DNA of 64,000 bases from Candidatus Aminicenantes bacterium (GCA_016933515.1 JAFGAV010000113.1:19023-83022), one strand, 5' to 3'. Shown: positions 7,322 through 45,633, counted from the first letter of the stretch. The notes: a model not told the origin generated them from the sequence alone. Made by a program: numbers and translations.

Positions 7322-8320
7322 TCACCTGATCATCCCCGGTTCCCAGACGATGCGCCCGCCGCGGTCGATATAGACATCCCGGCCGCTTCGAACCACCCTG
7401 GCCAGGCCGTTGATGAAATAATCCGCGCGCTCAAAACGCAACTCCACGGCCACGGCGCCCTGTTTGTCGACATAGCCCCAGCGCTCGCCCCGGCGGACTG
7501 CGGCCAAGCCCTCGTTGAAAGGCAGGGCCTCATCATAGAGGGCCATGATGACCGCTTTCCCCTCGGCGTCGATAAACCCGAATCGTCCCGAGGGCGGCAA
7601 CCGGACGGCGGCCAGCCCGTCCGAAAAACGCTGCGCCTCCTGGAAAACACGGCCTTGGAAAACAGCCGATCCCCGTTTGTCGATGTAGGACGCTCCGGAA
7701 GGCGTCCGGACCACGGCCCGGCCTTCCTGGAATTCCGAGGCGCCCTCAAACCGCGGGGGGATGACAACCCGGCCTTCCCGGTCGATGTGGCCCCAGCGGC
7801 CTTGAATCCGGACGGCGGCCAATCCCTCGAAGAAATCGCCCGCTTCTTCAAAACGGGCGGGAATGGCGCGGCGGCCCTGGCCGTCGATGAATCCCCACAA
7901 TCCCCCGGCCTTCACTCGGGCCAGGCCTTCCTGAAAAAGCCCCGCCTCTTCGACCGCCGGCATGGAAAGCATGCGTCCGGTCCGGTCGATGAAGCCCATC
8001 CGCCCCCTCAATCCGACCGCCGCCATCCCTTCGGAAAAGGGGCCGGCCCGTTCAAATCGGGCCGGAATCGCCGTCCGGCCCGAGATGTCGATGTAGCCCC
8101 ACATCTCTCCCTGTCTCACGGGACAAAGGCCCTCGGAGAAAAATCCGGCTTCCTCATACCGGGCCGGGACGGCTAAGCGGCCCGAGGCGTCGATAAAACC
8201 GACCTTGGACAGGACGCGGACTTCCCACAGGCCGCTTACGTTGTCCAGGCGTTTGTCCCGGGCCGAAAGGACAAGACCGGCTCCCAGAACAAGGAAGACC
8301 ATCGCCGTCAAACGCCTCAT
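7322..8320 (-). CDS. secreted WG-repeat (KWG-type) protein
   Basis: Has about 8 tandem ~38-aa repeats of the form 'GFID..GR.AIPARFE.AG.FSEGLA.V...G.WG'. There is a signal peptide after MRRLTAMVFLVLGAG. The start was chosen at the ATG with an AAAGGGAGGA RBS. Confidence 0.7.
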   Translation of the reverse strand: MRRLTAMVFLVLGAGLVLSARDKRLDNVSGLWEVRVLSKVGFIDASGRLAVPARYEEAGFFSEGLCPVRQGEMWGYIDISGRTAIPARFERAGPFSEGMAAVGLRGRMGFIDRTGRMLSMPAVEEAGLFQEGLARVKAGGLWGFIDGQGRRAIPARFEEAGDFFEGLAAVRIQGRWGHIDREGRVVIPPRFEGASEFQEGRAVVRTPSGASYIDKRGSAVFQGRVFQEAQRFSDGLAAVRLPPSGRFGFIDAEGKAVIMALYDEALPFNEGLAAVRRGERWGYVDKQGAVAVELRFERADYFINGLARVVRSGRDVYIDRGGRIVWEPGMIR

Positions 8321-8513
8321 GTGTTTCCTCCCTTTCATCGGGGTGTTGACCTCGCCGTGACGCTTTCTCAGGATCAAATCATAGAACATCGCCGCGAAAA
8401 GTCCAAGAGCGGCCCCCGGTCCCGGCGCCGATTCCGGCTGGAGGCGAATGCGGTTTTCCTGAGGGGAGCGCTCTCTCCCGCCCCTAAGTTCAGAGTTTAT
8501 CTACACTTAAGGT

Positions 8514-8542
8514 TGACAAACTCATTCCCGCGGAGTAGACTA
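8514..8542 (+). promoter_or_regulatory. sigma70-like promoter candidate upstream of ispH
   Basis: TTGACA, a 17-nt spacer, then TAGACT, about 35 nt upstream of the ispH ATG. Confidence 0.35.
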
Positions 8543-8575
8543 AATCACTATTTTTTGCGAGCGCATTCTCAGTCC

Positions 8576-9454
8576 ATGGAAATCATCGTCGCTCCCAATG
8601 CGGGGCTGTGCTACGGCGTCAAACGGGCCTTGAACCTCGTCCGAAAGATCCGCCGCCAACGCACCGGAGCCGTCACCACGCTGGGCGATCTCATACACAA
8701 TCCCGGCGTCATACAGGAGCTCAAAAGCCAGGGCATCGGTTCCGCCGAAACTCCGGAGGAGATACCGGAAGGCACGGTCATCATCCGCAGCCACGGCGTT
8801 TCGCCCGAAGTCTACGACATTCTCGAACGCCGCCGCCTGGACGTTGTGGACGCCACCTGTCCCATCGTGCACAGAATCCAGAAGCGCATCGCGGCCCTGG
8901 CGCGCCGCAACATCGAAATCATCCTTGTCGGCGACCGGGAACACCCCGAAATCAGGGGCCTTGTCGGCCACAGCCGGGGCAAAGCGTTGGTCCTGGACAC
9001 CGAGGAGAGCGCCACCCTCCTGCCGATCGCAAAAAAAAGGGCCGCCCTGGCCCAGTCCACGCTGGATCTCTCTCTCTTTAAAAAGATCGTCGCTGAGATC
9101 CTGGAACGAACCGCCGAACTGAGCGCCTTCAACACCATCTGCCAATTCACCCAGGCGCGACAGAAATCGACTTCGGAACTTGCCCGCCGTGTGGAGGCGC
9201 TGTTCATCGTGGGCGGCCGTTTGAGCTCCAACACCGCCAAGCTCTACCACATCTCGCGCCGCATCCTGCCCCGGACCCATTTCATCGAGTCGGCGGCTGA
9301 AATCCGCCCTGAGATGCTGGAAGGAGTCGAGCGCATCGGCATCTCCGGGGGAGCCTCGACTCCTCCCGAAGCCATAGACAAGGTCGTCCGGACCATCCGC
9401 GCCGGCCTTGAACCCAATCCCCGGATGGAGAAGAACGTCCCATGTCCGAAATGA
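8576..9454 (+). CDS. ispH: 4-hydroxy-3-methylbut-2-enyl diphosphate reductase
   Basis: Has the LytB/IspH motifs 'NAGLCYGVKRA', 'ATCPIVH' and 'SSNTAKL'. The upstream part of ORF 8321.. is non-coding leader. Confidence 0.9.
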   Translation: MEIIVAPNAGLCYGVKRALNLVRKIRRQRTGAVTTLGDLIHNPGVIQELKSQGIGSAETPEEIPEGTVIIRSHGVSPEVYDILERRRLDVVDATCPIVHRIQKRIAALARRNIEIILVGDREHPEIRGLVGHSRGKALVLDTEESATLLPIAKKRAALAQSTLDLSLFKKIVAEILERTAELSAFNTICQFTQARQKSTSELARRVEALFIVGGRLSSNTAKLYHISRRILPRTHFIESAAEIRPEMLEGVERIGISGGASTPPEAIDKVVRTIRAGLEPNPRMEKNVPCPK

Positions 9455-11199
9455 CCAAACCCCCTGAAAAAAAGAAAGAAGAAAATCTCGAGAACGAGGA
9501 CTACGCCAAGCTCCTGGACCGGTACCAGTTCAGCGCCCGGGAGATCGCCTTCGGCTCGATCGTCCACGGCCGCATCGTCCGCCTCACCCCGACCCACATC
9601 CTGGTGGATGTCGGCGGCAAGTCCGAAGGCCTGATTCCCGTCGAGGAATTCGACCCGAACGACCTGCGCCGGCTCAAACCCGGCGACACGGTGGACGCCG
9701 TCCTGGAGAGAGCCGACCCCAAGGAAGGGGCCCTCATCCTCTCCAAACGCAAGGCCGACACCGAGCACGCCCTGGACAATCTTGAGAAAGCCTTCCACGC
9801 CCGGAGCTGGATCACGGGCAAGGTCGTCGAACGGGCCAAAAACGGCTACCTGGTCAACGTCGGCATCCCGACCTTCCTTCCCGATTCCCACGCCGATTTG
9901 AGGATGGTTCGTGACCCCTCCACGCTTATCGGAAACGCCTACAAATTCAAAGTCATCAAGTTCGACCGCAAAACCGAAAACGCCGTCCTCTCCCGCAAGC
10001 TGTACCTTCAGGAGGAAAGGGAAAAAAAGAAAAAAAAGGTTTTCGGCGCCCTCGCTCAGGGCCAAAGGCTCAAGGGCACGGTGCGCTCCCTCACCAGCTT
10101 CGGCGCCTTCGTGGACATCGGCGGGATTGAAGGTCTTCTCCACATCTCGGACATGTCCTGGGGCAAGCTCGGCCATCCTTCAGAAATGCTCGAGGTCGGC
10201 CAGGAGGTGGAGGTCGTGGTCCTGGATTTCAACGAAAAAGAGGAGCGCATCTCTCTGGGGGTCAAACAGCTCACTCCCGATCCCTGGTCCGACATCACCG
10301 AGAAATATTTTCAGGGGCAAAGGATTCACGGCAAGGTCGTCAGCCTGACCGACTTCGGGGCCTTCGTCGAGCTCGAAAAAGGGGTCGAAGGCCTGGTTCA
10401 TATCTCCGACCTGAGCTGGTCGCGCAAGCTCGTCCACCCCAAGAAAATTCTTTCCGTCGGGCAGGAGGTCGAGGTGTCCATCCTCGACGTCAATTCCGAA
10501 TCCAAGCGCATCTCCCTGGGTCTGAAGCAGATCCAGCCTCATCCTCTGGAACTCCTCAAGCAGAAAATCAAGCCGGGAAGCCGGATCAAAGGCCGGATCA
10601 CGAGCATCACGGATTTCGGAGCCTTCCTCGAGGTCGAGCCCGGCATCGAAGGCCTCATCCACATCTCCGACCTCTCCTGGGAGAAGGTCAAGCACCCTTC
10701 CGACAAGCTCAAGGTCGGGGACGAGGCTGAAGTCGTGGTGCTCAACATCGACGTCGAAAAGCAGAAGGTCTCTCTGGGCATCAAGCAGCTCCAGGGCGAC
10801 ATCTGGGAGGATTTTTTCGCCCGCCACAAAACGGGCGACCTGCTCAACGTCAAGATCGTCCGCCTGGCCGACTTCGGCGTGTTCGTTGAAGTCCTGCCCG
10901 GCATCGAGGGCGTCGTCTTTCTCTCCGAGCTCGACGAGCGCCGGATCGACAACCCGGCCGAAGCGTTCAGCGCCGGAGAAGAGAAAACGGCCAAGATCAT
11001 CAAGATGAGCGCCAAAGACAAAAAGCTGTCCCTGAGCTTCCGCCAGGCCCAGGTCGAAATGCAGCGCCTCGACTATCAGAAATTCCTGAACAGTCAGGAC
11101 GACCGGCTCACCCTGGGCGATCTCATGCGGGACAAGCTGGAGAGCATCAAATCCCAGAAGCTGTCCGCCGCCAAGAAGGAGGCGAAAAGCGATGATTAA
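9442..11199 (+). CDS. rpsA: 30S ribosomal protein S1
   Basis: Six S1 domains with repeated 'G.V..I.DFGAFV....G.EGL.HISD' modules. It overlaps the ispH 3' end by 13 nt. Confidence 0.9.
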   Translation: MSEMTKPPEKKKEENLENEDYAKLLDRYQFSAREIAFGSIVHGRIVRLTPTHILVDVGGKSEGLIPVEEFDPNDLRRLKPGDTVDAVLERADPKEGALILSKRKADTEHALDNLEKAFHARSWITGKVVERAKNGYLVNVGIPTFLPDSHADLRMVRDPSTLIGNAYKFKVIKFDRKTENAVLSRKLYLQEEREKKKKKVFGALAQGQRLKGTVRSLTSFGAFVDIGGIEGLLHISDMSWGKLGHPSEMLEVGQEVEVVVLDFNEKEERISLGVKQLTPDPWSDITEKYFQGQRIHGKVVSLTDFGAFVELEKGVEGLVHISDLSWSRKLVHPKKILSVGQEVEVSILDVNSESKRISLGLKQIQPHPLELLKQKIKPGSRIKGRITSITDFGAFLEVEPGIEGLIHISDLSWEKVKHPSDKLKVGDEAEVVVLNIDVEKQKVSLGIKQLQGDIWEDFFARHKTGDLLNVKIVRLADFGVFVEVLPGIEGVVFLSELDERRIDNPAEAFSAGEEKTAKIIKMSAKDKKLSLSFRQAQVEMQRLDYQKFLNSQDDRLTLGDLMRDKLESIKSQKLSAAKKEAKSDD

Positions 11200-20489: not shown

Positions 20490-21482
20490 TCACGTCAGGT
20501 TGTGCCGGCGGAGGAGCTTGAACAGTCCCTGCCGGCTCAATCCGATGCCCCAGGCCGTTTTCGTCTTGTTGAAGCCGTATCGGCTCAACGCCTGCCGCAA
20601 AAAACGCTTCTCGAATCCCGCGCGGGCGGTGAAATAGTTGAAACCGTCCGGCTCTCCGTTCTTGGACATCCGGAGGATTCTCTCCGAAAGCCACTCCTGG
20701 CCGATGGGATCCCCGGGAGAGGAAAGCGCTAGGCAGCGCTGCACTTCGTTGTGCAGCTCCCGGACGTTTCCCGGCCATTGATAGAGAACGAGCTTGGAGG
20801 CGGCCTCCGGGGAAAGAGAGGCCGGCGGGCGGCCTAAAGCCCGGCATCCCAATTCGAAAAAATATTCAAGGAGAGGGAACAGGTCTTCGGGGCGTTTTCT
20901 CAACGGGGGGATGTCGATCGTCACCACGGCCAGACGATAATAGAGATCTTCGCGGAACCGGCCCTCGGCGATCTCCGCGGCCAGGTCCCTGTGGGTGGCG
21001 CTCAGGAAGCGGACATCCGCCCTTCGCGTCCGGTTCTCCCCCACCCGGCGGAATTCCCTCTCCTGAACGAGCCGCAGCAGCTTGGCCTGGAGCGCCGGGG
21101 AAAGGTCTCCGGCCTCGTCCAGGAAAAATGTCCCGCCCTCGGCTTCCTCGACCAGGCCCGGCCGCTCCCTGAGAGCGCCGGTGAACGCGCCGCGGCCGTG
21201 GCCGAAGAGCTCGCTCTCGAGGAGGGTCTCGGGGATCGCCCCGCAATTGACGGCCACGAACGGCCTATCGGCCCTCCGCCCGAGATCATGAACGGCCCGG
21301 GCGATAAGCTCCTTGCCCGTCCCGCTCTCCCCGAGGATGAGGACCGGCACGTCGCTCGCCGCCACGCGCCGGACGAGAGCGCGGACGCGCCGCATGTCCG
21401 GGCTGCGGCCGACGATCCGCGCTTCGAGGTCGATCCCGCCGCGCCCCGGGATCCGGCCGGCTTCGTCCTTCATTCCTTCCAT
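20490..21482 (-). CDS. sigma-54-dependent transcriptional activator (AAA+ and HTH only; no receiver or sensor domain)
   Basis: Has Walker A 'GESGTGKE', the 'GAFTGA' sigma54 contact motif, the arginine finger region, and a C-terminal Fis-type HTH. The start was taken at MEGMKDE (GGAAGGA RBS). Confidence 0.75.
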
Positions 21483-21694
21483 CGGGCTTTTCCTTCCCCG
21501 CACTCTCCTTGCTTTCTCCGGCGCCTGGCGGCCGAGTCTCTTTGCTATGGGATAACGCTCCGCCGGCCTCATCTGTCTCAGGTCGAAATCATTCTTCCGG
21601 CCGCCGATTCGAACGAGGCGCTCTGTTTCTTGCCACTGTCACAACTTTTCTGCTAGAGTGAAGGCCTCTCGGAAGCATCCGGAAGGGGGCAACC

Positions 21695-22558: not shown

Positions 22559-24658
<2,100 letters not shown>

Positions 24659-24800
24659 GTCTTTTGATGTTGCCGAGGAAGACCGGCCGGGAAGGAGAGG
24701 ACAAATCAGCGGTTATGGGGAAACAATCCGGATCTTCATGTCAAGGGCCCGCGCCGGCCGCGGAAACGAGGCGAAGCGGCCTGATGGCCCCTATTCAGAT

Positions 24801-25079
24801 GGCTCTATGACAAATTGTGTGGTGAATTTTTAAACTGAGAGCCAAGGGTCTGGGGGAGGGTTGAGGCGCCATAAGCGGTTTAGCCCGGAATCGACGGGTT
24901 TCGAAGGGTTCTGGCCTATTCTTGCCGGCCGGCTGAGCACATCTCGCGTCAGCGAGCGTATCGCGAAGCCGACTGAGAAACCCGGAGATTCCGCGGCGTG
25001 AAAAACCGCGGCCGGGCGCCGAAGCCCTCCCCCAGGCCCAAGGCTAACCCTAAAGGACCACACAATACATCATGGAGCC
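24801..25079 (+). repeat. Copy 2 of the ~80-bp repeat family, disrupted by a nested insertion
   Basis: Left arm ggctctATGACaaatTGTGTGGTGAATTtt...ctgagagccaagg. Right arm caaggctaaccctAAAGGACCACACAAtacATCATggagcc. The arms are separated by ~194 bp of unrelated sequence. Confidence 0.75.
24846..25039. mobile_element. Nested MITE-like insertion with 25-bp terminal inverted repeats
   Basis: TIRs GGGTCTGGGGGAGGGTTGAGGCGCC / GGCGCCGAAGCCCTCCCCCAGGCCC (22 of 25 complementary). Short direct repeats (CAAGG) flank both ends. There is no ORF inside. It interrupts the core of repeat copy 2. Confidence 0.55.
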
Positions 25080-25088
25080 GATTCGGAT

Positions 25089-25117
25089 TTGACATCAACG
25101 GGGAAGTCCATTACATT
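25089..25117 (+). promoter_or_regulatory. sigma70-like promoter for the cytochrome / Cyc2-like operon
   Basis: TTGACA, a 17-nt spacer, then TACATT, about 60 nt upstream of the GGAGGA RBS and ATG at 25177. Confidence 0.5.
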
Positions 25118-25176
25118 AGGCGGTAATTCCCCATGAACACTCTCGCATCCGGGAGCCGCCTCGAAACGGAGGAGTC

Positions 25177-26541
25177 ATGAAAAAGGCCTGGCCCTTGATC
25201 GCCCTCGCAGCCGTTCCCTTTGTCCTGCTCCTGGCGGCCCAATCCGAACAGGCCGTCAAAGCCGGCGACGAAGCGTTGGGCACCCGGAGATACGAGGATT
25301 ACGACACGCCCCGGTTCTGCGGCACCGCCTGTCACACGGACATCTTCCAGCAGTGGACCCAATCCATGATGTCTCAGGCCTACACTCATCACTGGGACGA
25401 AATCGAATATTTCCGGCTGGCCGTGCCGCATGCCGAAAAGGATCCGGCCATGGCCCAAGCCCAGGAGGGGTGCAACGGCTGTCACGCTCCGATCGCTTTT
25501 CTGGCGGGCGACGTCCCGCCCCCTCGTCCGGAGAAGAACAGCCGGGCCAATGAGTCGGTCTCGTGCGATCTGTGTCACACCGTGACCGGCTTTTCGGGCG
25601 ACGTTCCCTTCAACTTCAATTGGATCTCGGTCCCCGGGAAAACCAAATACGGACCTCGGGGCGGGGGCGATTCCCCGGAGCACAATCTCCAGCAGTCCGC
25701 ATTTCTGGCGTCGAGCGAGTTCTGCGGAACATGCCACAACGAAAAAAGCCCCTTCGGGGCCTGGGTCAAGGCCACCCAACTGGAATTCCAGGAGGGACCT
25801 TACGCGCGGGAAGGCTTCCGATGTCACGATTGTCACATGACCTATGCCCCGGGCCGGTCGGCCGCCATGGGCAACACCTACCCCGACGTCCGCCAGCATT
25901 TGTTCCACGGAGCCCACGACCCGGGTAAAGTCAGAGGCACGGTCGAACTCCGCATCCATCCCGACATCCGCGAGGCGGAGCCGGGAGAAACCGTCAAATT
26001 CACCATCGTTCTCTTCAATCAGAAAACCGGGCACAAATTTCCCACCGGGTCCGTCGAAGACCGCATTGTCTGGATGCACGTCGAGGCCCAGGACTCAAAA
26101 GGACAGGTCCACCATTTGCCCGTCGACAAAAAGGGTTTTCCCGGCGAGGACACGACGATCGCCGGCGAGGCCCTGGCCTACCAGGACATGGGAATCCCTC
26201 TCGGCAAGCCGGATTTCCCCGGAGTCGCCCGGGACGGCGTTCCCGCCGGCGACCGCATTTTCCGCATGGCCTATTTCGACCCGCAGGGGCGCATGACGAT
26301 CCAGCAATGGAACACCAAATCCTTCGGCGTGGATTACCGCTTCGGCCCCCGGGAATCCAAGATTGAAACCTGCACCTTTTCTCTGCCCGCCTCGCTCCCC
26401 CCCGGCCCCCTGACCGTCACCGCCGCCCTGTATTATCAAAAACTGATCAAATCCATCGCCGATTTATTGAACGTCCCGGCCGAAGAGGCCGAGCCTCTCA
26501 AAGTCAACGAACATTCCACAACCGTCATGATCCTCGACTAA
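25177..26541 (+). CDS. secreted pentaheme c-type cytochrome
   Basis: Has a signal peptide and five CxxCH motifs (CGTACH, CNGCH, CDLCH, CGTCH, CHDCH) in the N-terminal half. The ~230-aa C-terminal domain is heme-free. Confidence 0.8.
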   Translation: MKKAWPLIALAAVPFVLLLAAQSEQAVKAGDEALGTRRYEDYDTPRFCGTACHTDIFQQWTQSMMSQAYTHHWDEIEYFRLAVPHAEKDPAMAQAQEGCNGCHAPIAFLAGDVPPPRPEKNSRANESVSCDLCHTVTGFSGDVPFNFNWISVPGKTKYGPRGGGDSPEHNLQQSAFLASSEFCGTCHNEKSPFGAWVKATQLEFQEGPYAREGFRCHDCHMTYAPGRSAAMGNTYPDVRQHLFHGAHDPGKVRGTVELRIHPDIREAEPGETVKFTIVLFNQKTGHKFPTGSVEDRIVWMHVEAQDSKGQVHHLPVDKKGFPGEDTTIAGEALAYQDMGIPLGKPDFPGVARDGVPAGDRIFRMAYFDPQGRMTIQQWNTKSFGVDYRFGPRESKIETCTFSLPASLPPGPLTVTAALYYQKLIKSIADLLNVPAEEAEPLKVNEHSTTVMILD

Positions 26542-26551
26542 AGGAATGCCG

Positions 26552-27724
26552 ATGAAAAAAACGCTCCTGACGGTCTTCCTGGGGTTCCTTGTCCTTACGG
26601 CCACGGCGGCTTCCGTGTCCGGCATGCCGGCTTTCGGCCGCCGGTACAGCCTGTCCTGCAAGACCTGCCATGCGCCGTTCCCCCGCCTTCTGGCCTACGG
26701 GGAGGAGTTCGCCGGGGACGGCTTCGTCATCAAGGACAAGGACTCCCCGCGGTACTTCCAGGACACGGGCGACGACCTCCTGTCCCTGATCCGCAACATC
26801 CCCGTCGCCCTCCGCTTCGACGGATTCACGGCCTTCAACAACGCCGCTACGGGGCGGTTCGATTTCAACACTCCTTATGTCCTCAAGCTCCTGTCCGGCG
26901 GCGAGCTCTTCAAAAACGTGTCGTATTATTTCTATTTCTTTTTCAGCGAGCGAGGCGAAGTGGCGGGCATCGAAGACGCCTTCATCATGTTCAACAACCT
27001 TCTGGGAACAGGCCTGGCCCTCACCATGGGACAGTTCCAGATTTCCGACCCGATGTTCAAAAGGGAGCTCCGCCTGACCCTGGAAGACTACCAGGTCTAT
27101 CGCGCCCGGCCCGGGCTGTCGGGCATCAACCTGACCTACGACCGGGGCCTGATGCTCACCTTCGGCCTCCCGACCGGGACGGACGTCACGGCGGAGATCC
27201 TGAACGGCGCAGGAATCGGTCCGGCCGACGACGACAGGAATTTCGACAACGACGCCTTCAAGAATTTCGCCTTTCACCTCTCGCAGGGTGTGGGAGACAA
27301 GATCGGCCTGGGCGCGTTCGGTTTCCTGGGCAAGGAACGGCTCGGGGATTTCCGGAACAGCGTGTGGATGTTCGGCCTCGACGCCACCGTCGCCAGCCCT
27401 CCTTTCGAGTTCAACTTCCAGTATCTTGAGCGCCGCGACAACGATCCGTTTTTCGTCGGGGCCGTCGACGACAGCCTGTCCACCCGCGGCGCTTTGGCCG
27501 AGATCATCTATCTGCCCCGCGGCGACGACTCGCGCTGGTACGGGGTGGGCCTGGTCAACTGGATCGTCTCCGACGCTCCCGGCCTGGACGTCTTTTCCTT
27601 CACCTTCGGAGGGGGCCATCTCCTGCGGCGCAACATGCGGCTCGTCGCCGAGGTCACGTATTACGACCAAAGCCCCTGGGGGCGCTATTTCCGGGTGGCC
27701 TCCGGCTTGGTGACCGCTTTTTAG
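26552..27724 (+). CDS. Cyc2-like fused monoheme cytochrome c / outer-membrane beta-barrel porin
   Basis: Has a signal peptide, then 'PAFGRRYSLSCKTCHAPFPRL' (a single CxxCH directly after the signal). After that come ~350 aa of amphipathic beta-strands ending in a C-terminal aromatic (..GLVTAF). Cyc2 iron oxidases share this architecture. An AAGGAA RBS sits 5 nt upstream. Confidence 0.65.
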   Translation: MKKTLLTVFLGFLVLTATAASVSGMPAFGRRYSLSCKTCHAPFPRLLAYGEEFAGDGFVIKDKDSPRYFQDTGDDLLSLIRNIPVALRFDGFTAFNNAATGRFDFNTPYVLKLLSGGELFKNVSYYFYFFFSERGEVAGIEDAFIMFNNLLGTGLALTMGQFQISDPMFKRELRLTLEDYQVYRARPGLSGINLTYDRGLMLTFGLPTGTDVTAEILNGAGIGPADDDRNFDNDAFKNFAFHLSQGVGDKIGLGAFGFLGKERLGDFRNSVWMFGLDATVASPPFEFNFQYLERRDNDPFFVGAVDDSLSTRGALAEIIYLPRGDDSRWYGVGLVNWIVSDAPGLDVFSFTFGGGHLLRRNMRLVAEVTYYDQSPWGRYFRVASGLVTAF

Positions 27725-29835
27725 CCGGCCGAGGTTTTGAGCGTCCGAATGCGGCGGGAGACGTTCCGATACTGGGGGTTCCAGCTCTTGACTTCGGAGA
27801 ACATGCCGAGGGCTTTGTCTTTCTGCTCCATCTCTTCGAACAGGGCGCCCAGTTCATATTTGAGCACATAGGATTTCCGGGAGCCTTCCTTGACTTGGCC
27901 TAAGGCCTTGTTGATCCATTCCAGGGCCTGGACATAGTCCTTCCGGGCCCGGTAGCAGAGGCTGATGAGGTTGTAGCAGTCGGCTCGGCGCTTTTCGTCC
28001 TCGGCGGCCAGCTTGAATTCCTCGGCCGCCTCCTCGTAGAGATCCTGCTCGTAGAAGGCCATGCCCAGGCTGTAGCGCACCTCCAGGTTGGACGGTTTGA
28101 ACTTTTGCTCCACGTCCTTCCGGAAATCGCTGATGATGTCCGACAACTCGTTCTCCACGAGGGCCGTCGCCTTCTTCTGCTGTTGGTAGGTCGCGGCCTC
28201 GATGAGAGCCAGTTCCTCGACGATGATGTCGGCCAGATCCGGGAAGAGGCCCTCGTCAAAAGCCATGGGCCGGGACAGGCTTTCGAGGCCGTCGAACACA
28301 TCCACGGAACTGACCTGTTCCTTGACGCTCAGATCGGGCATGGGCCGGGCTTCGGATTTTCGGGACCGCCCCGCTTTCTGCTCCAGGACGGCGGCCTTCT
28401 CCACCAGGCGCGGAATGGCCTCCCTGGACGCCGGTCCGGCGACGCTTTTCAGAGATTCGAGCCGATTCCGGACCCCCCGGTCTTCCGGATAGAGAAGCAG
28501 AAGGTTTTCCAGAATCCGTTTGGCGTTCAGGGCCAAGCCCTGCTGAAGATAGAGCTCGGCTTTGGACAAATTGATCCGGATCGTCTCCTTGTCCTTGGCC
28601 GTCAACCGCGCTCCGCCGTCCTGTTTGGCGCCCGCGGCCGACGGCAGATGTTGTTCTGCTCCGGATTGGGCGAATTCCCGAGCCAGGACCTGGTCGTCGG
28701 GACAAAGGTCAATGAGCTCCCTGAGCACGACGAGCGCTTTCTGGCGCATGCCCTTGAGGCGGTATTCCTGCAGGAGAATCCGCAGGGCCGCCTCGAGGTT
28801 CGCCTTTTGATTTCGGGATTTGAAAATGACCGAGAGCTTCTCCAGAGCGGGAAGGTAGGCCTCCTTCCCCATGACGAGCTGGCCCAAAAGTCCGATGGCC
28901 TTGTCTTCGCGATTTTTACTGAGCAGCGTGTTGACCAGGGGTTCGTAGAGGTCGTACCCCCTGTCGAGCTTGTTGAGCTGGATGAAGGCGTATCCCAACC
29001 GGACCCGGGTGTTGATGTCGTTGGGATTGTGATCGTACATGCGGGAGAAGATCTCCTCGGCTTTTCGAAATAGCTTTTCGTCGAGGTACAGCCCACCGAT
29101 CTGGGAGAGAAGATCCTGATTGTCGGGGTGATGGCGCAGGCTGTCTTCGGCCAGCACGATGGCTTCCGCACGGCGCCCGCGCCGCTTCATCAGCTCAACG
29201 TAATTGAGCGCCGTCCGAAGATGCCCTTTCTTCAGCTGGTTGGCCTGGCCGAGGATTTCCTCGGCCTCCTTCAGGTCCTGGCGGTCCAGCTTGATTTCGG
29301 CCGCCTCGTTGAGCATGTCCGCGGCCTCATCGATCGAGCCTTCCTTGATGTACAATTCCGCGAGGCGCCTTTTGACCCTGGCGTCCGCGCGGTCGAGCTT
29401 GGCCATTTTCTCCAGGACGAATATCAGTCCTTTGACGTGGCGCTCTTTCTCCAGCCGGTCGACGATCTTCTGAAAACCGTTTTTGGCCTCGGAAACGAAC
29501 CCCAGGAGGGCGTACAACTCGGCCAGCTTGATGGCCGTGGGAACGTCGTCGGGTTTGACCTTGCTGATTTTTCTGTAGCTGGCCAGGGATTGGGAGTACT
29601 GCCCTTTGGCTTCGTAGTGGCTGGCGATTTTCAGAAATTGCTCGATGCCCTTGCTCGGTTTGCCGAGCCGGACGTAAAGATCGCCGATGATGTTGGCCAG
29701 GTTGACGTCAAGGACGCCGTCTTCCTCGAGCCTTTCGTACTCCTTGACGGCCTCGCGCAATTTCCCCGCCCGGAAGAACTTCTCGGCGCCTTCCAGAATC
29801 GTCTGTCTCTCTTTTTTGGAAATCATTTTTTCCAC
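27721..29835 (-). CDS. TPR repeat protein
   Basis: 704 aa with many 34-aa TPR-like repeats (A..Y..AL.....A). The start is either the GTG at 29835 or the ATG at 29826. Confidence 0.75.
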   Translation of the reverse strand: MEKMISKKERQTILEGAEKFFRAGKLREAVKEYERLEEDGVLDVNLANIIGDLYVRLGKPSKGIEQFLKIASHYEAKGQYSQSLASYRKISKVKPDDVPTAIKLAELYALLGFVSEAKNGFQKIVDRLEKERHVKGLIFVLEKMAKLDRADARVKRRLAELYIKEGSIDEAADMLNEAAEIKLDRQDLKEAEEILGQANQLKKGHLRTALNYVELMKRRGRRAEAIVLAEDSLRHHPDNQDLLSQIGGLYLDEKLFRKAEEIFSRMYDHNPNDINTRVRLGYAFIQLNKLDRGYDLYEPLVNTLLSKNREDKAIGLLGQLVMGKEAYLPALEKLSVIFKSRNQKANLEAALRILLQEYRLKGMRQKALVVLRELIDLCPDDQVLAREFAQSGAEQHLPSAAGAKQDGGARLTAKDKETIRINLSKAELYLQQGLALNAKRILENLLLLYPEDRGVRNRLESLKSVAGPASREAIPRLVEKAAVLEQKAGRSRKSEARPMPDLSVKEQVSSVDVFDGLESLSRPMAFDEGLFPDLADIIVEELALIEAATYQQQKKATALVENELSDIISDFRKDVEQKFKPSNLEVRYSLGMAFYEQDLYEEAAEEFKLAAEDEKRRADCYNLISLCYRARKDYVQALEWINKALGQVKEGSRKSYVLKYELGALFEEMEQKDKALGMFSEVKSWNPQYRNVSRRIRTLKTSAG

Positions 29836-43049: not shown

Positions 43050-44314
43050 TGGACCGCGCCATTCTGATCCACGTGTCCCTTTCGGCGCGGGAAAAGGCCG
43101 AAGCCGATTCTTCTCTCGACGAACTGGCCGGCTTGACCCGGGCCGTAGGTGCGGCAGTCGTCCACCGGTTGAGGCAAAACCGGATCCGGCCCAGCCCGCG
43201 GACCTTCATCGGCGAAGGGAAAGTCCGGGAGTTGGCTCTCCTGGCCGAGGAACTCCGGGCCGACCTCATCGTCTTCGACCGCAACCTGACTCCCGTACAG
43301 CAGCGCAGCCTGGAGGATTCCCTGCCCGCCCGGGTCGTCGACCGAACTCAACTCATTCTGGACATCTTCGCCCGTAGGGCGGCTTCCCGCGAGGGAAAGC
43401 TCCAAGTCGAGTTGGCTCGTCTGATGTACCGGCTTCCCCGGTTGACGGGCAAGGGCAAGACGTTCTCCCAGCCGGGCGCCGGGATCCGGACCCGGGGCCC
43501 CGGAGAGCAGAAGCTCGAGGAGGACCGGCGCCGCATCCAGAGCCGCATCACCGGAATCAAGCGGCAAATCCGGAGCCTCGGCCTGCGGCGGGCCGGACAG
43601 CGATCGAGCCGCCGGAAATCCCCCATGCCCGTCGTGTCCCTGGTGGGTTACACCAGCGCCGGCAAATCCACGCTGTTCAACGCCCTCTCCCGGGAACGCG
43701 CCTTCACCTCGCCCATGCTTTTCGCCACGCTCGATCCCGTCCTCAGGCGCGTTTCTTTCCCGGACGGCCTCTATTTTCTGCTGAGCGATACGGTCGGCTT
43801 CCTCCGCAACCTCCCCGTAGAGCTCGTCACCGCTTTCCGCGCCACGTTGGAGGAAATCCGCGAGTCGGACTGCATTTGCCACGTCATCGACCTCGCCTCT
43901 CCCCGGAGCGGAGAGCAGGCCGAGGCTGTGGAGAACGTTTTGGCCGACATCGGCGCCGGCGACATCCCTCTCGTGCGTGTCTTCAACAAGATCGACCTCC
44001 TTCCCGGACGCGAGGGGCTCCTGTCCCCCGGAGAGAGGCCGGGCGCCGCCGGCCGGGCCTATGTTTCGGCCAAGACGGGCGAAGGCATCCCCGACTTGAA
44101 ACGCCTCTTGCGGGGAATCCTTTTCCAGGACCGGCGCCTGTTCCGCTTCAGGCTGCCGGGCGACCGCCGCGCCCTGCTTCCCGAAATCGCCGAACGGGGA
44201 GTCATCCTCAAGACGGCGGAAAGCCCGGACCATGTCGATCTGACCCTCATGGCCCGGCCGGAGTCGGTCAGGGACCTTCTTCCCGAGTTTGCCGAAGGAG
44301 AACCGCTATGTTGA
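43049..44314 (+). CDS. hflX: GTPase HflX
   Basis: Has the HflX N-domain, G1 'GYTSAGKST', 'DTVGF' and 'NKIDL'. The start overlaps the miaA stop. Confidence 0.85.
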   Translation: MDRAILIHVSLSAREKAEADSSLDELAGLTRAVGAAVVHRLRQNRIRPSPRTFIGEGKVRELALLAEELRADLIVFDRNLTPVQQRSLEDSLPARVVDRTQLILDIFARRAASREGKLQVELARLMYRLPRLTGKGKTFSQPGAGIRTRGPGEQKLEEDRRRIQSRITGIKRQIRSLGLRRAGQRSSRRKSPMPVVSLVGYTSAGKSTLFNALSRERAFTSPMLFATLDPVLRRVSFPDGLYFLLSDTVGFLRNLPVELVTAFRATLEEIRESDCICHVIDLASPRSGEQAEAVENVLADIGAGDIPLVRVFNKIDLLPGREGLLSPGERPGAAGRAYVSAKTGEGIPDLKRLLRGILFQDRRLFRFRLPGDRRALLPEIAERGVILKTAESPDHVDLTLMARPESVRDLLPEFAEGEPLC

Positions 44315-45633
44315 AAAAAACCGCCGCCCTGTTTCTGGCCCTCGCTCTCAGCGGGGCCTGCGCCACCTGGCAAGCCCCTCTCCCCACATTCCACGTCGAC
44401 AATCTCCCTCCCGGATCGGTCACCGCCCTGACGCTCGAAGAGCGCATCATTCTCGAGGAAGCCTGGTCGCGGATCCGACGTGGAGACGCCAAGGGCGCCG
44501 AGAAGCTCTTTTTCCGCCTCGGGGCCGACAACTCCTTTTACGAAGCGGGCCTGGGATACGTGGCCCTTCTCCGGGAACAGGATCAGGCGGCCGAAACGCT
44601 TTTGCTCGAATCCCTGAACGTATACCCGGAGATGACCGTCAGCCGCATCGGCCTGGCCCAGCTCTACCAAAAAACGGGCCGCATCGACGCCGCCTTCAAC
44701 GAATATTTGGAGGTCTTGAAGATCGACCCTGAGAACGCCTGGGCCCTCAGGGAAAGCGAGGCCATCCGCGAGCGCCAGACGGAAATTCTCCTGCGCGAAG
44801 GCGTGGCGCACTTCGAACAGGGCTCGATCGAGGAAAGCAAGGAAGCCTTCAACAAGGCCCTTCACTACTCCCCGAAATCCCTGGAAGCGCATCTCAATCT
44901 CGGCCGGCTTTACATGAAAGAGAACCAGCCCAACAACGCTCTCGTGCATCTGGACGCCGCGGCGGCCGCGGCCCCGAAAAACCAGGAGATCCTGAGGGAA
45001 TACGCCGAGGCGCTTCTCCAAGCCGGACAATTCGGCCGAAGCCTGGAAGTGTTCGAGAAACTGCTGGACCTCGATCCCAAGAACAAGGACATTCTCGCGC
45101 AGGCGGAAAAGCTGAAGAACCGGCTGGGCATTTTCGAGCTGCCGAGCCAGTATGACCTGATTCCCGCCGCGGCCGCCGTCACGCGGGAGGACATGGCCGC
45201 CTTGATCGCGGTCAAGCTCAAGGATTTTCTGGAGGATCCCGGAACCCGCCCTCCGGTCATCATCGACATCGCCACGTCTTGGGCGTCCCGGCTCATCCTC
45301 AAGGTCGCTTCCTTGGGATTGATGGAGGTCTATCCCAACCACACGTTCGAACCCAAGCGGATCCTGTCGCGCGCCGAGACGGCCGAAATGGTCATGAACC
45401 TCGTGAATCACCTCAAGCGCCGCGGCGGGCGGCCGTTCATCCGCCAGTTTCCTCCGGAAATGATCCGGATTTCCGACGTTTCGACCGAAAACATTCATTA
45501 TCAATCCATCGTCGAAGTCGTCTCCCTGCAGCTCATGGATCTCGACCCGGAAAAATCGTTCCGCCCCGACCAGCCCGTTTCGGGCCGTGACGCCGTCCGC
45601 ATCCTCGACCTGATCCTCGCTCTCTTGAACTAG
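44308..45633 (+). CDS. TPR-repeat lipoprotein with SLH-like C-terminal segment
   Basis: Has the lipobox 'LALSGC', 4-5 TPR repeats, and C-terminal 'ILSRAETAEMVMNLV', an SLH-like motif. GAAGGAG RBS. The part of ORF 43876 upstream of 44308 overlaps hflX and is an artefact. Confidence 0.6.
   Translation: MLKKTAALFLALALSGACATWQAPLPTFHVDNLPPGSVTALTLEERIILEEAWSRIRRGDAKGAEKLFFRLGADNSFYEAGLGYVALLREQDQAAETLLLESLNVYPEMTVSRIGLAQLYQKTGRIDAAFNEYLEVLKIDPENAWALRESEAIRERQTEILLREGVAHFEQGSIEESKEAFNKALHYSPKSLEAHLNLGRLYMKENQPNNALVHLDAAAAAAPKNQEILREYAEALLQAGQFGRSLEVFEKLLDLDPKNKDILAQAEKLKNRLGIFELPSQYDLIPAAAAVTREDMAALIAVKLKDFLEDPGTRPPVIIDIATSWASRLILKVASLGLMEVYPNHTFEPKRILSRAETAEMVMNLVNHLKRRGGRPFIRQFPPEMIRISDVSTENIHYQSIVEVVSLQLMDLDPEKSFRPDQPVSGRDAVRILDLILALLN

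Follow-up and report, generated by a model that had tools for sequence, protein, structure and literature searches.

A conserved pentaheme cytochrome and Cyc2-family porin gene pair as a candidate electron path across the outer membrane of Candidatus Aminicenantes

In Acidithiobacillus, the partner role beside the fused monohaem cytochrome-porin Cyc2 is taken by Cyc1/c4, and the canonical chain of A. ferrooxidans is encoded as cyc2-cyc1-cox-rus. Members of the Cyc2 family have been defined by a signal peptide, a single CxxCH haem motif and a length of at least 365 aa, with AxPxFAR[Q/K][T/Y] just before the CxxCH, a sequence termed Cyc2-unique, and PxL four residues downstream (Keffer et al. 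2021, PMC8406198). Their porin domain has 16 strands and is structurally like OprP/OprO (PMC8406198), and all Cyc2 proteins tested biochemically are Fe(II) oxidases (PMC8406198, PMC7005843). Here we describe a two-gene operon of Candidatus Aminicenantes in which a Cyc2-like gene is preceded by a gene for a secreted pentaheme cytochrome. The stretch of DNA analysed (hereafter, the window) comprises 64,000 nt, and the operon occupies positions 25089-27724 on its plus strand; its two co-directional open reading frames, ORF1 (454 aa) and ORF2 (390 aa), correspond with 100% identity to adjacent hypothetical proteins (JW747_09740 and JW747_09745, respectively) of a Candidatus Aminicenantes metagenome-assembled genome (MAG). 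We read the pair as a minimal trans-outer-membrane electron path for a small soluble substrate, by default serving Fe(II) oxidation, with ORF1 as the redox partner, and put the probability of this reading at roughly 0.55.

Judged from its diagnostic motif, fitting length, OprP/Omp32-like predicted fold and full-length homology to proteobacterial Cyc2-type proteins, ORF2 is a member of the Cyc2 fused cytochrome-porin family, as an initial reading of the window from its letters alone (the sequence-only reading) had suggested. That reading had pointed to a signal peptide followed closely by a single CxxCH and to a beta-strand-rich remainder ending in Phe, and each of these elements was recovered. 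By inspection, the N-terminus consists of MKK, a hydrophobic core and a cleavage site between VSG and MPAF, the position of which is conserved in all 120 close homologs listed. Every one of these 120 proteins contains exactly one CxxCH, at the same offset in 112; the strict PxFAR[QK][TY], always three residues before the Cys, occurs in 105 (consensus A(I/M)PAFARKY), and P.L lies within eight residues downstream of the CxxCH in 118. An exhaustive profile search for further relatives yielded 2,334 clusters at 50% identity, and among the full-length distant representatives listed, 43 of 44 carried the haem motif, with the signature recognisable in nearly all of those. The haem motif is conserved far beyond chance, and its invariance in close homologs speaks against a CxxCH that had arisen fortuitously in a haem-free porin. 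With its 390 aa, ORF2 exceeds the family minimum of 365 aa, and a beta-barrel is indeed predicted for it: an AlphaFold2 model built from 41 sequences shows 18 strand segments, with a predicted local distance difference test score (pLDDT) of 70-85 across the barrel, and best matches 16-strand porins, with Omp32 and OprP being closest.

Database names contributed little to this assignment. Pfam and NCBIfam returned no match for ORF2, a phmmer search against PDB sequences gave noise, and cluster look-ups for ten distant representatives produced almost no names; homologs of ORF1 and of ORF2 each number over 2,500 in the protein collection, nearly all of them unnamed. A distant representative from the profile search (P0342) was used to gather MAG relatives from Gallionellaceae, Acidiferrobacterales, Thiobacillaceae, Chromatiales and Nitrospinota. 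In a BLASTP comparison, ORF2 and P0432, a protein from a Gallionellaceae MAG, were 35% identical along 288 aa (E 6e-48), the two having the barrel motifs YYFY..E.GE and GQFQ(I/V)SD.MF.RE.RLT in common. In addition, hhalign matched the ORF2-family profile to an alignment of the Gallionellaceae/Acidiferrobacterales/Thiobacillaceae type with a probability of 100% (E 9.8e-55, 354 columns); the Gallionellaceae-type reference proteins are MAG-derived and annotated 'hypothetical', and their status as canonical Cyc2 is inferred from lineage, size and motif.

Compared with Cyc2 of Acidithiobacillus ferrooxidans, Cyc2PV-1 of Mariprofundus ferrooxydans and Cyt572 of Leptospirillum, ORF2 is alike in its signal peptide, its single N-terminal CxxCH with the accompanying signatures, its size of ~400 aa, its OprP-like barrel of ~16 strands and its full-length profile homology to proteobacterial members. 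It departs from classical Cyc2 in its degenerate motif and in its hosts, which are Aminicenantia and Ignavibacteria rather than lithotrophic iron oxidisers. Its setting differs as well: a dedicated pentaheme gene precedes ORF2, while the window contains neither an adjacent dihaem Cyc1/c4-type cytochrome gene nor genes for rusticyanin or a terminal oxidase (cox), and the locus matches neither the A. ferrooxidans chain nor a combination of Cyc2 with a c4/Cyc1 partner.

A study of cable bacteria placed the pentaheme cytochrome c552 of Thermochromatium tepidum, ExtKL and Gsu2801 together in one family of pentaheme cytochromes (PHC) whose C-terminal domain is immunoglobulin-like (Ig-like); in Geobacter, extKL sits in a cluster with the porin gene ExtI (PMC11976967). 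MccSep, as which ExtKL was recently identified, is a periplasmic five-haem selenoprotein that reduces polysulfide, the catalysis of which needs a Cys that ligates haem 2 and a selenocysteine (Sec) or Cys in the Ig-like domain. A profile search of PDB sequences with the ORF1 family recovered T. tepidum c552 (5ZE8, 435 aa; E 1.4e-5) in three collinear segments covering both protein halves, at ~15% identity. The NCBIfam ExtKL model NF040886 matched ORF1 with E 4.5e-12 and 45.3 bits, short of its cut-off of 250 bits, and likewise matched all 31 aligned ORF1-family sequences, weakly (best E 4e-15), while Pfam gave weak generic multihaem matches and nothing else. The AlphaFold2 model of ORF1 was poor (pLDDT 46.6) and was used just for its agreement with the sequence match to 5ZE8, not for haem-ligand geometry. 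Five haem motifs, a C-terminal Ig-like beta-sandwich and the similarity to 5ZE8 mark ORF1, at the level of sequence, as a distant member of the c552/ExtKL pentaheme family, an identification that goes beyond the sequence-only reading. With T. tepidum c552 and the PHC family (PMC11976967), ORF1 has in common a length of ~435-454 aa, a five-haem N-terminal domain and the C-terminal Ig-like beta-sandwich. We found no report tying T. tepidum c552 to a Cyc2-type porin gene, although the genes around c552 were not inspected.

A secreted cytochrome with five CxxCH motifs had initially been proposed for ORF1. The predicted secretion and the number of haem motifs held, but one motif is of a different type: ORF1 has four CxxCH and one CxxxCH (CGTACH), all in its N-terminal half, and their Cys and His residues are invariant across 31 aligned sequences. 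The CxxxCH at motif 1 is a rule of the subfamily, being present in 30 of the 31; the homolog P0231 and T. tepidum c552 have CxxCH at this position. CX3CH and CX4CH motifs are known to bind haem in other multihaem cytochromes, and five haems are therefore still the best reading of the ORF1 sequence. In the same alignment, eleven His besides those of the haem motifs and many polar residues of the C-terminal domain are invariant, whereas no Cys outside the haem motifs is, the sole such residue of ORF1 (C399) being variable. ORF1 also lacks the hallmarks of MccSep, that is, the distal Cys ligand of haem 2, the Sec/Cys in the C-terminal loop and an in-frame stop codon (UGA). We ruled out an MccSep-type enzyme since ORF1 has neither an invariant Cys outside the haem motifs nor an in-frame stop. 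Its Sec-type signal peptide without a lipobox, the eleven extra invariant His and the missing catalytic Cys and Sec/Cys make it more likely that ORF1 is a soluble periplasmic electron carrier rather than an enzyme.

Two smaller features of ORF1 are worth recording. The Met-Met pair M64-M65 (25366-25371) is invariant, and T. tepidum c552 reads Met-His at the aligned place, following haem 1; speculatively, this may be a distal-ligand change from His to Met, giving a higher-potential His/Met haem. Farther along, D353-G354-(V/I)355-P356 (26233-26244), with R352, D353, G354 and P356 invariant, resembles the D-G-Sec-P loop of MccSep with Val/Ile replacing Sec. The ExtKL model alignment (ORF1 residues 153-311 to model 176-334) does not place D353-P356 at the MccSep loop, and we do not claim equivalence.

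How widely the two genes keep company was assessed in a locus scan with one genome per GTDB species, which yielded 295 confirmed loci; the counts below refer to the best 80 of these. In 77 of the 80 loci, the gene immediately 5' of the ORF2 homolog is an ORF1 homolog; two of the three exceptions are contig ends. Gaps between the paired genes are ~5-118 nt by alignment and mostly below 35 nt. The identities of both genes to the window copies correlate (Spearman 0.54 across 73 loci), with ORF1 being the more conserved of the two (mean identity 73% vs 57% for ORF2). Paired loci occur in Aminicenantes/Aminicenantia, Ignavibacteria, Melioribacteraceae, Holophagae and others, including the isolate Rosettibacter primus 4148-Me. 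Even a representative that scores ~467 bits against the ORF2-family profile has a 454-aa multihaem gene as its partner, whereas the weaker relatives P0263, P0264 and P0308 stand alone without a pentaheme neighbour, and the proteobacterial Cyc2-type genes examined are solitary, too. From this pattern, with the pairing kept in close loci and absent from the weaker and proteobacterial relatives examined, we conclude that the pentaheme-linked form is, by its gene context, a distinct Cyc2 subclade. Since flanking genes vary between lineages, the pair itself is the conserved unit, and the 10-nt gap in the window, the conserved adjacency and the correlated divergence support a functional coupling of ORF1 and ORF2. 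The same counts back the earlier suggestion that a multihaem partner is non-canonical for Cyc2.

Two observations concern the records that carry these loci. Many are titled 'uncultured Eubacteriales', 'Clostridia' or 'Clostridiales bacterium' (L007, L011-L015, L019, L021-L023 and others), and several of the Eubacteriales- or Clostridia-titled ones have Aminicenantes-type flanks (TPR and RNase HII genes); such labels on MAG records are probably wrong. Furthermore, the contig of the ~467-bit representative also encodes a protein with a tail of the type IX secretion system type (Por_Secre_tail).

The arrangement of the two genes in the window is compact (Table 1). As the sequence-only reading had it, 10 nt separate the ORF1 stop codon (TAA, 26539-26541) from the ORF2 ATG at 26552, with an AAGGA within or overlapping the gap, and a sequence scan of this gap revealed no terminator between the genes. 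The start of ORF2 is best placed at 26552, because AAGGA lies 6 nt upstream and because a 390-aa NCBI protein of equal length is 100% identical; an alternative ATG at 26546 leaves no room for a ribosome-binding site. Upstream of ORF1, a consensus scan found TTGACA-17-TACATT, which matches 10 of 12 consensus positions. Across 3.8 kb, the scan located two promoter sites of this kind where shuffled sequence would give 0.8, which alone is weak evidence. Both hexamers are kept in the closest relatives, L006 and L007, within an aligned upstream stretch that is overall just 63% identical, and in 15 of 67 related loci TTGAC[AT]-N16-18-TAnnnT is found upstream of the ORF1 homolog at a distance of no more than 260 nt, compared with 1% of control windows taken from the same loci (~20-fold enrichment). 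Given the conservation of the hexamers and the enrichment upstream of homologous operons, TTGACA-17-TACATT is the probable promoter of the operon, in agreement with the sequence-only reading.

With its 518 nt, the spacer in front of ORF1 (24659-25176) is unusually long, and apart from the promoter block its conservation in the closest relatives is poor. An Rfam search of this spacer gave nothing credible, and a 77-aa minus-strand reading frame within it (24830..25063) is probably spurious. A sigma-54 promoter, considered in view of a sigma-54 activator gene at 20490..21572, was rejected: by eye, the sole TGGC..TTGC-like site (~24913..24926) is mis-spaced by one base. At the other end, no convincing intrinsic terminator was found 3' of ORF2, the stop codon of which overlaps by 4 nt (27721-27724) the end of a convergent gene for a 704-aa TPR protein (27721..29835, minus strand).

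Table 1. Coordinates of the operon's features, counted from the first letter of the window
Feature	Position	Strand	Basis
Sigma-70-like promoter, TTGACA-17 nt-TACATT	25089..25117	+	scan; conservation in L006, L007
ORF1 ribosome-binding site, GGAGG, 4 nt before ATG	25168..25172	+	sequence; kept in L006, L007
ORF1, secreted pentaheme c-type cytochrome, 454 aa, T. tepidum c552/ExtKL family; N-terminal haem domain and C-terminal beta-sandwich	25177..26541	+	
ORF1 predicted signal peptide, ~residues 1-26, without lipobox Cys	25177..25254	+	inspection: MKK, hydrophobic core, AAQSEQA; first Cys is C48
ORF1 haem motif 1, CGTACH (CxxxCH), residues 48-53	25318..25335	+	sequence
ORF1 haem motif 2, CNGCH	25471..25485	+	invariant
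ORF1 haem motif 3, CDLCH	25564..25578	+	Cys/His invariant
ORF1 haem motif 4, CGTCH	25723..25737	+	Cys/His invariant
ORF1 haem motif 5, CHDCH	25822..25836	+	Cys/His invariant
ORF2 ribosome-binding site, AAGGA, overlapping the ORF1 stop codon	26541..26545	+	sequence
ORF2, Cyc2-family fused monohaem cytochrome-porin, 390 aa	26552..27724	+	motif, fold, homology
ORF2 signal peptide, residues 1-24, predicted cleavage after VSG	26552..26623	+	inspection; cleavage position conserved before (I/M)PAF
Cyc2 signature, GMPAFGRRY-SLS-CKTCH-APF-PRL	26621..26689	+	motif definition from PMC8406198
ORF2 haem motif, CKTCH, residues 36-40	26657..26671	+	~12 residues after the likely cleavage site between VSG and MPAF
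Predicted outer-membrane beta-barrel, residues ~85-390, 16-18 strands	26804..27721	+	structure model
ORF2 C-terminal beta-signal, GLVTAF	27704..27721	+	

Other systems also combine a barrel gene with an adjacent multihaem cytochrome gene, presumably to move electrons through the outer membrane, among them the porin-cytochrome complexes MtrCAB, MtoAB/PioAB, Geobacter Omb/Oma/Omc and Ext. However, the barrels of these complexes are built from 20-26 strands (26 in MtrB/MtoB) and sheathe their multihaem protein, whereas ORF2 is predicted to have 16-18 strands and a fused monohaem domain, so that the pentaheme protein would have to remain outside the pore. A sheathing porin-cytochrome of the MtrAB/MtoAB type was rejected on the strand number and on the best matches being 16-strand porins; no extracellular lipoprotein cytochrome is encoded in the window. 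The likeness to ExtKL/MccSep of Geobacter sulfurreducens is closer on the side of ORF1, which is also a predicted periplasmic protein with five haems and a C-terminal Ig-like domain encoded beside an outer-membrane beta-barrel gene. In contrast to ExtKL/MccSep, ORF1 scores far below the family cut-off and lacks a haem-ligating Cys, any Sec or Cys in the active-site loop and an in-frame UGA; moreover, the ORF2 barrel has a haem motif of its own, while ExtI of the extHIJKL cluster has not been described with one.

These comparisons can be cast into a model of how the pair may work. ORF2 would form a 16-18-strand porin, with an N-terminal peptide of ~50-60 residues holding one c-type haem within the periplasmic mouth or next to it. 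This haem would be the only redox centre at the membrane and would react with small soluble species entering the pore, as has been suggested for Cyc2, since a barrel of 16-18 strands is too narrow to enclose a 45-kDa cytochrome. By homology with three biochemically tested Cyc2 proteins, Fe2+ or chelated Fe3+ would be the most likely substrate. ORF1, exported by the Sec route, would dock from the periplasm as a dedicated redox partner, its five-haem chain relaying electrons to or from the Cyc2 haem, with redox enzymes of the inner membrane or periplasm at the other end, and would thus fill the role that Cyc1/c4 has in Acidithiobacillus. Flow would by default be directed inward, from Fe2+, because every biochemically tested Cyc2 oxidises Fe(II). 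Haem attachment, localisation, contact between ORF1 and ORF2, substrate and direction of flow are all model predictions, and any extracellular electron exchange by this organism would depend on them.

Several points weigh against this picture. The ORF2 motif is degenerate (GMPAFGRRY vs AxPxFAR[K/Q][Y/T]) and would fail the strict regular expression used in screening for the published tree; it keeps P, F, R, Y and the spacing, the three changes being A to G twice and K to R, and the nearest relatives of ORF2 have PAFGR[RK]Y in common with it. In the AlphaFold2 model, the cytochrome peptide (residues 20-74) has a pLDDT below 50. The function of cluster 3 Cyc2 is explicitly regarded as uncertain (PMC8406198). 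No terminal oxidase, cytochrome c maturation or other respiratory genes are present in the window. Finally, fermentation, acetogenesis or sulfate reduction has been described for Aminicenantes (PMC7914226), and the closest solved relative of ORF1 is termed low-potential in the title of the cited paper; neither point is easily reconciled with Fe(II) oxidation. The least secure step of the explanation is the direction of flow, as most of the hosts either ferment anaerobically or reduce iron.

It is accordingly on direction that the first alternative differs. The same conduit might run outward, with ORF1 passing electrons from fermentative or other anaerobic metabolism to the Cyc2-type haem and on to soluble acceptors such as chelated Fe(III), humic quinones or flavins; cyc2 would then be no marker of iron oxidation in these lineages. 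We consider this possible, though doubtful. The hosts, which are anaerobes or belong to iron-reducer lineages (Aminicenantia, Ignavibacteria/Melioribacteraceae; PMC7914226, PMC6344600, PMC7399161), argue for it together with the low potential that the cited title attributes to the pentaheme relative and with the lack of oxidase genes beside the pair. On the other hand, Cyc2 proteins have without exception proved to be Fe(II) oxidases when tested biochemically (PMC8406198, PMC7005843), and the invariant Met-Met of ORF1, opposite Met-His in c552, might, speculatively, mean a higher-potential His/Met haem.

A second alternative assigns catalysis to ORF1, as a periplasmic multihaem reductase of sulfur, selenium or nitrogen compounds, and makes ORF2 mainly a substrate-specific porin, the haem of which would perhaps serve in redox sensing or priming. 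Such a division of labour would parallel ExtKL beside the porin ExtI in Geobacter, with MccSep being a five-haem polysulfide reductase with a C-terminal Ig-like domain, and the ExtKL model does match the whole aligned ORF1 family (31/31, best E 4e-15). Stronger conservation of ORF1 than of ORF2 (73% vs 57%) and the many invariant polar residues in its C-terminal domain are, moreover, as often seen in enzymes. Yet no conserved Cys could supply either the haem-ligating Cys or the Sec/Cys of MccSep (C399 is variable), a score of 45 bits is far under the 250-bit equivalog cut-off, and a mere substrate channel would leave unexplained why the ORF2 haem motif is invariant across ~160 relatives. We regard this alternative as unlikely. 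Least probable, to the point of being improbable, is a role in iron homeostasis, in which the pair would oxidise Fe2+ at the outer membrane to keep iron influx or toxicity in check, or monitor the external redox state, with no link to a respiratory chain: a VIT1-family gene adjoining the cyc2-like gene in two unrelated loci (L059 from Rosettibacter, and L005), a sigma/anti-sigma trio typical of envelope-stress regulation flanking the pair in some loci and a position among housekeeping genes with conserved synteny would fit, but the VIT1 linkage is limited to 2 of 85 loci, the trio is missing from the whole window and a five-haem partner would be costly for detoxification alone.

The wider neighbourhood of the operon is of a housekeeping kind, as had been noted initially. 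Upstream lies a gene for a DUF255 thioredoxin-like protein and, farther away, genes for a Na+/H+ antiporter and the sigma-54 activator; downstream follow the convergent TPR gene and genes for RNase HII, L19, TrmD, SRP54 and phosphofructokinase, and the rest of the window, where sampled, encodes ribosomal protein S1, biotin carboxylase, glycosyltransferases and similar proteins. The absence of other respiratory genes, too, was confirmed to the extent that no reading frame besides ORF1 has more than one haem motif in the 64-kb window and that ORF1 is the only cytochrome frame there other than ORF2. TPR is encoded downstream in 33 of the 80 loci and RNase HII in 30 of the 80, and many Aminicenantes have TPR, RNase HII, L19 and TrmD. 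Recent horizontal transfer is unsupported: the GC content of the pair is like that of its surroundings, and the TPR/RNase HII/L19/TrmD synteny is common to other Aminicenantes.

Further observations concern the genes next to the pair. The DUF255/thioredoxin-like (YyaL-type) gene is found directly upstream in the window (22559-24658) and also in L014 (978-3038) and L048 (1090-2853); its CHWCH is a thioredoxin-type CxxC and no haem site. A trio of genes for an extracytoplasmic function (ECF) sigma factor, a zf-HC2 anti-sigma factor and a secreted protein of ~240-250 aa flanks the pair, on either side, in 20 of the 80 loci (e.g., L001 4417-6232 and L003 3873-5807). The secreted protein is conserved, being 41% identical between L001 and L003, and has a faint Secretin_N match. 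No copy of the trio exists in the window (1-64000), and the 83%-identical relative L007 retains a mere fragment; the trio may regulate the operon in particular lineages. In Rosettibacter primus (L059), thiamine-biosynthesis genes lie upstream, and genes for a VIT1-family iron transporter (7898-9010) and a dihaem cytochrome c (9181-10164) lie downstream. The VIT1-family gene of L005 (5087-5782) stands in an unrelated context, and the recurrence may be coincidence. Elsewhere in the window, a TPR protein with an S-layer-homology domain (43876-45633) and a WG-repeat beta-propeller protein (7322-8389) are unrelated to the operon.

A Cyc2 homolog in Aminicenantes is not new as such: cyc2 has been reported in Aminicenantes genomes in FeGenie-based work (Garber et al. 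2020, PMC7005843; Martins et al. 2021, PMC7914226), and also in Ignavibacteriaceae (PMC6344600). Searches of the accessible literature for Cyc2 with pentaheme, Melioribacter, Rosettibacter and Aminicenantes multihaem cytochromes returned no description of the pentaheme-Cyc2 gene pair, and the tightly conserved operon appears to be an undescribed variant. Electron exit from Cyc2 into the periplasm is poorly defined, and the constant pentaheme companion names a concrete candidate partner. The two-gene signature is recognisable and can be scored by gene-neighbourhood tools, and with the module present in the cultured Rosettibacter primus 4148-Me, its function is directly testable.

Cyc2 is the most widely used marker gene of microbial iron oxidation and is routinely scored in metagenomes, including those of Aminicenantes, which are abundant in anoxic sediments; the pair raises the question whether cyc2 in these anaerobes reports iron oxidation. 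As a tentative proposal, the locus may represent a distinct, for the most part vertically inherited Cyc2 clade hard-wired to a c552/ExtKL-type pentaheme cytochrome, a central redox device in the outer membrane of anaerobic Aminicenantia and Ignavibacteria with a working mode not known from Cyc2, be it electron export to soluble acceptors or the feeding or gating of a new periplasmic multihaem enzyme. If so, this would be the first case of a Cyc2 with a periplasmic partner fixed at the genetic level, and the many calls of iron oxidation from cyc2 in sediment metagenomes of these lineages would be misassigned.

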